Below are positions 1,243-1,357 of a DNA stretch of 5,184 nucleotides, one piece after another (within the stretch, counting starts at the first letter, position 1; every line of letters starts with the position of its first letter). Origin of the DNA: a virus (Duplodnaviria > Heunggongvirae > Uroviricota > Caudoviricetes); the IMG/VR virus record IMGVR_UViG_2703718801_000009, positions 1 to 5,184 of that record; one strand, 5' to 3'. The notes under the pieces are model-generated. The model had not been told where the DNA came from, did no database searches, and saw only the letters and a program-made list of their open reading frames with translations. The position numbers and the translations under genes are program-made.

Positions 1243-1357
1243 ACACCGAACCTGCCCCTTTGGAATGGGCCTTTGAGGATACCAGTTAGTGCTGGCGAGC
1301 CTCGGTGGGCTGGTTTCCTGTGCGGCAAAGGTTCATTTCAAAGAGTAGGTACACGCT

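Follow-up and report, generated by a model that had tools for sequence, protein, structure and literature searches.

A structured RNA leader of about 145 nt precedes accessory genes in phage late regions and may gate their translation

The window, i.e., the whole analyzed stretch of 5,184 nt (IMG/VR record IMGVR_UViG_2703718801_000009, positions 1 to 5,184), represents the late region of a lambdoid prophage of the Shiga-toxin type. It begins with an Ant-like gene on the + strand (40-609, P22_AR_N / ORF11CD3 by ORF and Pfam analysis), followed by a small ORF, Rz/Rz1 (752-1155), a KilA-N / ORF11CD3 gene on the + strand (1358-1855, likewise assigned by ORF and Pfam), further small ORFs including a TonB-like one, an HNH endonuclease gene (3248-3613), terS (3903-4466), and terL. 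The Rz i-spanin is distributed over two frames, with the N-terminal transmembrane part at 752-913, the periplasmic part at 832-1155 and Rz1 embedded at 917-1102, which suggests a frameshift or a recombinant truncation.

Upstream of the ant-like and the kilA-N gene, the initial annotation had described a repeat of about 21 bp, TCCTGTGAGACAAGGTTCAT at positions 1-20 and TCCTGTGCGGCAAAGGTTCAT at 1316-1336. Both copies are present as described and, once a single-base gap is allowed for, share 18 of 21 positions of the alignment; for a degenerate pattern fitting both copies, 0.01 chance matches are expected per window. The reported distance of about 20 nt between the end of each repeat and its start codon (ATG 40 and ATG 1358) could be confirmed as well. 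The size of the element had to be revised. The similarity carries on downstream (12-29 versus 1328-1345) and, with the left side of copy 1 taken from the near-identical phage Stx2a_WGPS2, also extends about 130 nt upstream. The lysozyme-to-ant spacer of this phage comprises about 270 nt, the final ~130 nt of which align with the Rz-to-kilA spacer of the window. A covariance model was built from 47 relatives using the nested helices alone, with the pseudoknots PK1 and PK3 (see below) left out. It matches the window at 1209-1367 in full length (153 bits, E = 4e-33) and at 1-51 (35.7 bits, E = 2e-5), where the match is 5′-truncated at model position 108. Due to the extended similarity and the two matches of the covariance model, the coordinates of the 21-mer mark a 3′ edge only: the 21-mer is the 3′ edge of a structured RNA leader of about 145 nt, not an element of its own. 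Leader copy 2 spans approximately 1218-1360. Leader copy 1 is cut by the window edge, so that its 3′ part is found at 1-42 and its missing 5′ part is visible in relatives.

The leader is a + strand RNA with the hairpin P0, the helices P1 and P2 and the long-range pseudoknots PK1 and PK3. In copy 2, P0 (1218-1235) is composed of ATGCGT, the loop ACCGCA and ACGCAT; the stem is kept with compensatory changes in alignments of 47 to 99 sequences. PK1 is formed between the P0 loop (CCGCA, 1225-1229) and the 6-nt P2/P1 internal loop (GUGCGG, 1320-1325, with the partner at 1321-1325), and PK3 between the linker following P0 (CACCGA, 1244-1249) and the 3′ half of the P2 apical loop (TCGGTG, 1302-1307). 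The 5′ strand of P1 (AUGGGCCUUUG, 1265-1275) pairs with CAAAGGUUCAU (1326-1336), i.e., with the final 11 bases of the 21-mer, and the 5′ strand of P2 (AGGAUACCAG, 1276-1285) with CUGGUUUCCU (1310-1319), the last four bases of which open the 21-mer. In PK1, the P0 hairpin loop accordingly finds its partner in the variable centre of the 21-mer (GAGA versus GCGG). All strands of P1, P2, PK1, and PK3 are assigned by covariation. The P2 apical loop (1286-1309) contains, in addition to the PK3 strand, the 5′ strand UGGCG (1293-1297) of a candidate pairing PK2, whose 3′ strand CGCUA (1354-1358, within 1354-1360) overlaps the kilA start codon (1358-1360). P1 is predicted by the minimum-free-energy fold, with little covariation, to be prolonged by the extension P1ext, which pairs 1251-1264, comprising the anti-Shine-Dalgarno CCUGC and CUUUGGA, with 1337-1350, including the Shine-Dalgarno sequence GUAGG (1345-1349). 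Together, P1 and its extension make up an uninterrupted duplex of 18 bp in copy 2, followed by the 10 bp of P2 across an asymmetric loop; in other subclasses the P1/P2 duplex is bulged rather than continuous.

The same order of parts is found in the + strand remainder of copy 1 in front of the ant-like gene, with the end of the P2 3′ strand (1-4), the PK1 3′ strand GUGAGA (5-10), the P1 3′ strand (11-20), the P1ext 3′ strand with the Shine-Dalgarno sequence AAAGG (21-30) and the PK2 3′ strand ACCGAUG (36-42). In the counterpart of copy 1 in Stx2a_WGPS2 (L001:2898-3051), the P0 loop UCUCAC complements GUGAGA and the apical UGUCGGU complements ACCGAUG.

The fold was evaluated on a MAFFT alignment of 47 sequences, which is unbiased by the model, and on model-based alignments of 68 and 99 distinct sequences. 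With the full model (P0, P1, P2, PK1, PK3), 90.2% of the cells of the MAFFT alignment are paired compared to 32-44% with slid partners, and 141 cells are changed on both sides compared to 47 in shuffles (0/500), cell counts that overstate the independent events due to the close kinship of many aligned sequences, which the separate subclasses mitigate. On the model-based alignments, 93.3% (68 sequences) and 88.9% (99 sequences) of the cells are paired, and 27 of 38 and 30 of 38 pairs, respectively, change on both sides. Both-side changes were found on the alignment of 99 sequences in all 11 pairs of P1 (95% of the cells paired) and in 7 of the 10 pairs of P2 (90% paired). For PK1, 94%, 92% and 83% of the cells are paired on the alignments A3, A5 and A6, with both-side changes in 3 to 5 of the 6 pairs. 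PK3 was found independently by RNAalifold on the MAFFT alignment, as CACCGA (1244-1249) with UCGGUG (1302-1307), and shows up to four pair types within a single column. Since PK1 and PK3 are absent from the covariance model, their counts are not fitted to it and are independent of the alignment method.

At least 10 covarying variants of the PK1 loop and its partner could be identified, among them UCUCAC/GUGAGA, CCGCA/UGCGG, UCACAC/GUGUGA, UCGCAC/GUGCGA, UCGCAU/AUGCGA, GCCACAU/AUGUGGC, CGCUC/GAGCG, and UUCUCG/CGAGAA. Divergent subclasses retain every helix with different sequences, and the covariance model additionally detected divergent members, namely the leaders of TerB-like genes, a short form and Actinobacillus-like forms. 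No match of the model was obtained in 69 unrelated genome loci (L131-L199) used as a negative control; these had been collected with a loose degenerate pattern on genome contigs, which yielded chance matches only. The alignments contain 106 G-U cells and 54 A-C cells, 48 of the latter stemming from one doubtful outer pair of P0, and the reverse-strand model scores about 20 bits compared to 90-160 bits in forward direction. Both the excess of G-U and the low reverse-strand scores identify the + strand RNA as the functional strand. A small local hairpin CCAG/CUGG inside P2 was rejected as part of the conserved fold, as the changes in the ES18 type compensate the long P2 helix instead, and is possible as a transient alternative.

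A natural recombinant leader was observed at L073:2509-2663. Its P0 is of the Stx2-86 type (loop CGCAC), but all other parts correspond to the 933W type (internal loop GUGAGA), and therefore PK1 is mismatched there, which makes this leader a ready-made natural PK1 "mutant".

The distribution of the element was determined by scanning IMG/VR for the 21-mer, which revealed 130 instances (87 distinct). In all 128 instances with enough flank, a start codon follows the 21-mer on its own strand at a distance of 16-25 nt; the remaining 2 of the 130 run off the contig end. The search of relatives, as proposed in the initial annotation, thereby revealed a strongly biased position, and random placement fails as a description. 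A BLAST search with the two spacers detected the element in 78 and 308 phage records, respectively, including P22, ES18, many Stx phages and phages of Klebsiella, Hafnia, and Actinobacillus. The gene that follows it is rha in P22, ES18 and Hafnia phages and ant in Stx phages; in Actinobacillus and Klebsiella phages, as in the window, it is kilA-N. Furthermore, the element was found in front of an HNH gene that lies between the Q/tRNA region and the gene for the holin, and once within a tail-gene region. Due to these varied locations, the element is considered to travel with the accessory gene and not with the lysis genes.

The 106 distinct downstream proteins fall into 27 clusters, and Pfam matches were obtained for 16 of 17 scanned representatives. 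The families comprise KilA-N, Phage_pRha, P22_AR_N (Ant), Bro-N, HNH_3 with or without AP2, TerB-like and tail-tip-like proteins. The earlier association with genes encoding an N-terminal DNA-binding domain is too narrow, as HNH endonuclease and TerB-like genes carry the element too. Leaders similar to the class-1 form of the kilA copy are present in 954 of 5,426 complete E. coli genomes (~18%), where they are unannotated or overlapped by Rha CDS whose starts are extended into the leader. Many phages contain two or three leaders in tandem cassettes (L040, L063, L065, L012, L037, L029, L099, L129, L251, and the window); the PK1 sequences of tandem leaders within one genome usually, but not always, differ.

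The annotated starts of P22 rha "ORF201" (L003, NC_002371, 1546-2151) and of many PGAP "Rha family transcriptional regulator" CDS are GTG codons in the P2 apical loop. A coding function of the leader as an N-terminal extension, corresponding to the P22 ORF201 or PGAP Rha start, was rejected, as the frame is closed by a TAG at positions 1346-1348 of the window. Two further findings speak against coding: the differences in spacing between element and ATG are not multiples of 3, and the proteins encoded behind the element are unrelated to each other. As the extension of 23 codons is not conserved (TAG 1346-1348), such Rha starts are probably mis-annotated.

For the regulatory role, the initial annotation had considered a promoter, an operator or an mRNA leader. 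Of these, the mRNA leader is borne out by a structured + strand RNA at a fixed distance from the start codon. The intergenic position upstream of regulator-type genes would also suit a promoter or operator by which, at the DNA level, expression of the following gene is driven or repressed in the prophage. A search for sigma-70 hexamers (-35/-10 with 16-18 nt spacing) on the + strand of window positions 1100-2300 and of L001 2700-3800 gave none, so that neither copy has a sigma-70-like pair, and the conservation consists of strand-asymmetric base-pair covariation with G-U wobble. In addition, the element lies inside a co-directional late operon and is usually preceded by a terminator. The promoter/operator reading could not be upheld and is regarded as hardly credible.

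The terminator-like hairpins proper are located upstream of the element; a run of at least five T in the 70 nt before the P0 region was found in 116 of 142 family members. In the window, two hairpin plus T-run signals occur in tandem on the + strand after Rz (1188-1235). The first, read from the sequence at 1188-1210, lies just 5′ of leader copy 2, and the second is P0 with a T6 tail. P0 was rejected as an intrinsic terminator of the family, as the T6 after P0 occurs only in the subclass of copy 2 and most members are without a T-run there. Due to the T6 tail in copy 2, transcription might partly stop inside the leader in this phage.

The alternative proposal of a boundary at which cassettes are exchanged by recombination is descriptively true, as near-identical leaders precede unrelated genes; this role looks like a consequence of a portable leader and not like its function. 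A linker without any RNA function, kept only by homologous recombination that swaps the flanked genes, would be in agreement with these near-identical leaders and with the recombination event inside the leader of L073. A neutral linker would, however, not keep five helices by compensatory changes in subclasses that are only ~50-75% identical, and we consider such a linker very improbable. The leader resembles the boundary sequences of the modular theory of lambdoid phages in being a conserved sequence at the junction of exchanged genes; it differs in that the block is selected for RNA structure and that its 3′ edge coincides with the start codon.

The 3′ end of the fold is related to the translation initiation region in two ways. 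The first is PK2: a stretch of 5-8 nt whose end lies at or within the start codon is complementary, in most subclasses, to the 5′ half of the apical loop of P2. Among 36 loop types without the GGCG motif, 24 have a PK2 of at least 6 bp, with 22 distinct duplexes; in 16 of these 24 types PK2 reaches into the start codon, and cross-paired controls attain 6 bp in 25%. The ant copy of the window belongs to the strong type (ACCGAUG, 36-42, with UGUCGGU). In the GGCG/ACGC loop type, PK2 is a weak pairing of 3-5 bp; the kilA copy is of this type, its candidate pairing comprising 4-5 bp including a wobble. The short form of the element has no PK2.

The second relation is given by P1ext. Nested-only folding extends P1 downward, so that a conserved box, CCUUU / ACC(U), is predicted to pair with the Shine-Dalgarno sequence. 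For 88 members, a mean pairing probability of 0.92 was predicted for the Shine-Dalgarno GG, with the partner located 5′ of P1 in 70 of the 88, an energy prediction with almost no covariation. Copy 2 has a minimum free energy of -56.2 kcal/mol (z = -2.75). A single register of PK2 or P1ext over all subclasses was tried and is not possible; for this reason PK2 was analyzed by a custom script and P1ext is kept as a thermodynamic prediction. Occlusion of the ribosome-binding site is hence to be graded by its parts, being partly demonstrated for PK2 and predicted for the Shine-Dalgarno sequence.

The PK3 strand adjoins the anti-Shine-Dalgarno box with 0-1 nt in between. Due to this contiguity, PK3 and the extension that sequesters the Shine-Dalgarno sequence may either be joined in a closed fold of two stacks or exclude each other as alternative states of a switch. 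The linker lengths suggest a steric conflict of PK3 with the full P1 extension, and if the leader is a switch, the PK3/anti-Shine-Dalgarno junction is its most likely place.

From the helices P0, P1, P2, PK1 and PK3, which are demonstrated by covariation, and from the pairings at the ribosome-binding site, we infer a regulatory consequence. We slightly favour the reading as a cis-acting leader that hides the ribosome-binding site and thus gates the translation of the downstream accessory gene. The leader would be transcribed on the + strand together with the phage late genes. In the folded leader, Shine-Dalgarno sequence and AUG would both be occluded, which would hold translation of the accessory gene off or low in cis within a heavily transcribed late operon. 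Release would require a refolding event, for which a ligand, a protein, co-transcriptional kinetics or RNase processing are candidate triggers. Several of the genes behind the leader, among Ant, Rha, KilA-N, Bro-N, HNH, and TerB-like, are classically considered harmful when over-expressed. As the leader includes everything up to the AUG, it is portable and hence marks the 5′ boundary of exchangeable cassettes. A translational gate of this kind would give a handle on the old question of how accessory or "moron" genes in late operons, such as antirepressors, Rha, KilA, Bro and homing endonucleases, are kept in check. Due to its portability across gene families, the leader may also serve as a modular part for translational control.

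Part of the leader has been detected as an RNA. P22F is an 89-nt RNA from P22-infected Salmonella with "no known function" that ends 6 nt before the rha AUG; it is abundant as a small RNA and enriched in vesicles, and an IsrK-like role was proposed by the authors (Naaz et al., 2026; PMC13397905). Comparison with the P22 locus (L003, a 154-bit model match) revealed that P22F comprises the P1/P2 hairpin of the P22 copy with a tail of 16 nt, its 5′ end lying 1 nt before P1, and that its first 80 nt are identical to window positions 1264-1343. The P1/P2 core is thus already known as P22F, and the leader as a whole belongs to a widespread and unannotated family with several pseudoknots; P0, PK1, PK3, the covariation, the start-codon pairing and the use by multiple gene families are not described in that paper. 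The detection of P22F indicates that this strand is transcribed and that a stable fragment accumulates, and it keeps processing, self-cleavage and a trans-acting sRNA alive as explanations. The 3′ end of P22F between Shine-Dalgarno sequence and AUG fits a processing or sRNA role at least as well as a gate.

A module for RNA processing or stability would be an RNase III or RNase E site or a self-cleaving ribozyme. Its cleavage would free the accessory cistron from the late polycistronic mRNA, leave P22F behind and set half-life and yield of the flanking messages. A discrete 89-nt species with defined ends and the 18-bp uninterrupted duplex of P1 and its extension in copy 2 are in line with this, and compact multi-pseudoknot folds in a phage context are typical of small ribozymes. 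For an RNase III site, about 20 bp of near-continuous duplex would be expected, compared to the 18 bp in copy 2 and the bulges in other subclasses. The read ends in small-RNA sequencing are imprecise, though, neither a ribozyme nor any other Rfam model matches, and a pure cleavage module needs neither the covariation of PK2 with the start-codon region nor the fixed distance to the AUG. On balance, a processing module appears unlikely as the main function. The leader is similar to the RNase III signals of the T7 type in forming a long irregular hairpin with an asymmetric internal loop between cistrons of a polycistronic phage mRNA, and in the stable processed fragment observed, cleavage of the leader itself being putative. 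T7 RNase III sites are not known to have covarying loop-loop and loop-linker pseudoknots like those of the leader.

The abundance of P22F as a small RNA, its enrichment in vesicles and the IsrK-like role suggested by its authors (PMC13397905) would be in agreement with a free-standing sRNA acting in trans, in which case P22F and its homologues would be kept for phage or host targets and the adjacency to the gene would be incidental or IsrK-like. Against this, P0, PK1 and PK3 lie outside the 89-nt species and nevertheless covary with its interior, and PK2 covaries with the initiation region of the respective downstream gene. Moreover, no promoter-like site was found in the element, and the terminator is usually located upstream and not downstream of it. 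For these reasons, a trans-acting sRNA is judged improbable.

The element was compared with known RNA families using Rfam 15 (4,227 models). Searches with the window and L001 gave nothing on the element at E ≤ 1, and a permissively filtered search with just the element gave no more than noise below the thresholds (miRNA-hairpin models with 13-16 bits and snoRNAs). Among the self-cleaving ribozymes, hammerhead, twister, twister-sister, pistol, hatchet and HDV-like models gave no Rfam match on the element. The pseudoknot layout of the pistol ribozyme looks superficially similar and differs in the internal-loop strand that pairs. No description of the element was found in the literature on rha/IHF, on ant/KilA RNA motifs and on EHEC prophage sRNAs (AsxR, AgvB, Pas).

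Several known systems are comparable in part. The preQ1-II and SAM-II riboswitches sequester the ribosome-binding site by a pseudoknot, and like them the leader is a 5′UTR element that ends at the ribosome-binding site and whose pseudoknotted fold would place Shine-Dalgarno sequence and AUG in a helix. It differs from both in having no sequence or model match to them and in being larger, with three long-range pairings. For a metabolite sensor, it would be unusual to occur, as the leader does, only in late operons of phages and in front of genes with unrelated functions.

The c4 antisense RNA of P1/P7 and IsrK of Gifsy-1 control ant-type genes. Common to these RNAs and the leader are a location on the same transcript and short loops that complement the ribosome-binding region of a downstream antirepressor-type gene; furthermore, the complementary blocks vary between phages while the scaffold is kept, here with 22 PK2 duplexes, an analogy and not a membership. 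The architecture differs, and the pairings of the leader are most simply intramolecular. C4 and isrK are probably included in Rfam, and the searches of Rfam as a whole gave no match on the element.

In the E. coli alpha operon with S4 and in T4 gene 32, pseudoknot leaders are autoregulated by the encoded protein; the present leader would resemble them in enclosing the initiation region in a pseudoknotted fold and thereby determining translation. Such autoregulation is implausible for a leader that is shared by genes of at least six unrelated protein families.

With three pseudoknots and its use as a portable module for late-operon accessory genes, the leader could be a ligand-sensing riboswitch of a new class or else a self-cleaving ribozyme that is likewise new. 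We regard this as less likely than not, with a chance that is nonetheless substantial. Of the features of a riboswitch, a conserved structured element with covariation is present. As for an expression platform, pairing of the Shine-Dalgarno sequence is predicted, and pairing of the start codon covaries in most subclasses and is weak in others; the gene context (Ant, Rha, KilA-N, HNH, TerB-like) points to no ligand. If true, such a riboswitch or ribozyme module would be used by phages of Enterobacterales and Pasteurellaceae, P22 and Shiga-toxin phages included. The latter two are among the best-studied phages, yet the RNA of about 145 nt is contained in no RNA-family database. As a candidate for such a switch or ribozyme it is well supported, and its helices are already mapped by abundant natural variation.

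Apart from the leader, three minor observations were made. In L001, a weak Esr41-like match is located on the - strand at 919-996, downstream of an esterase gene (28 bits compared to a gathering score of 102). The HNH gene of the window (3248-3613) is without a leader copy and lies directly 5′ of terS/terL, an arrangement typical of HK97-like cos phages. Upstream of terS, four ATGTTAAC(T/C)GG-like motifs were found at 3705-3835, two of them in direct repeats of 16 nt (3710-3725 and 3778-3793) and one inverted, which are probably terminase recognition repeats.
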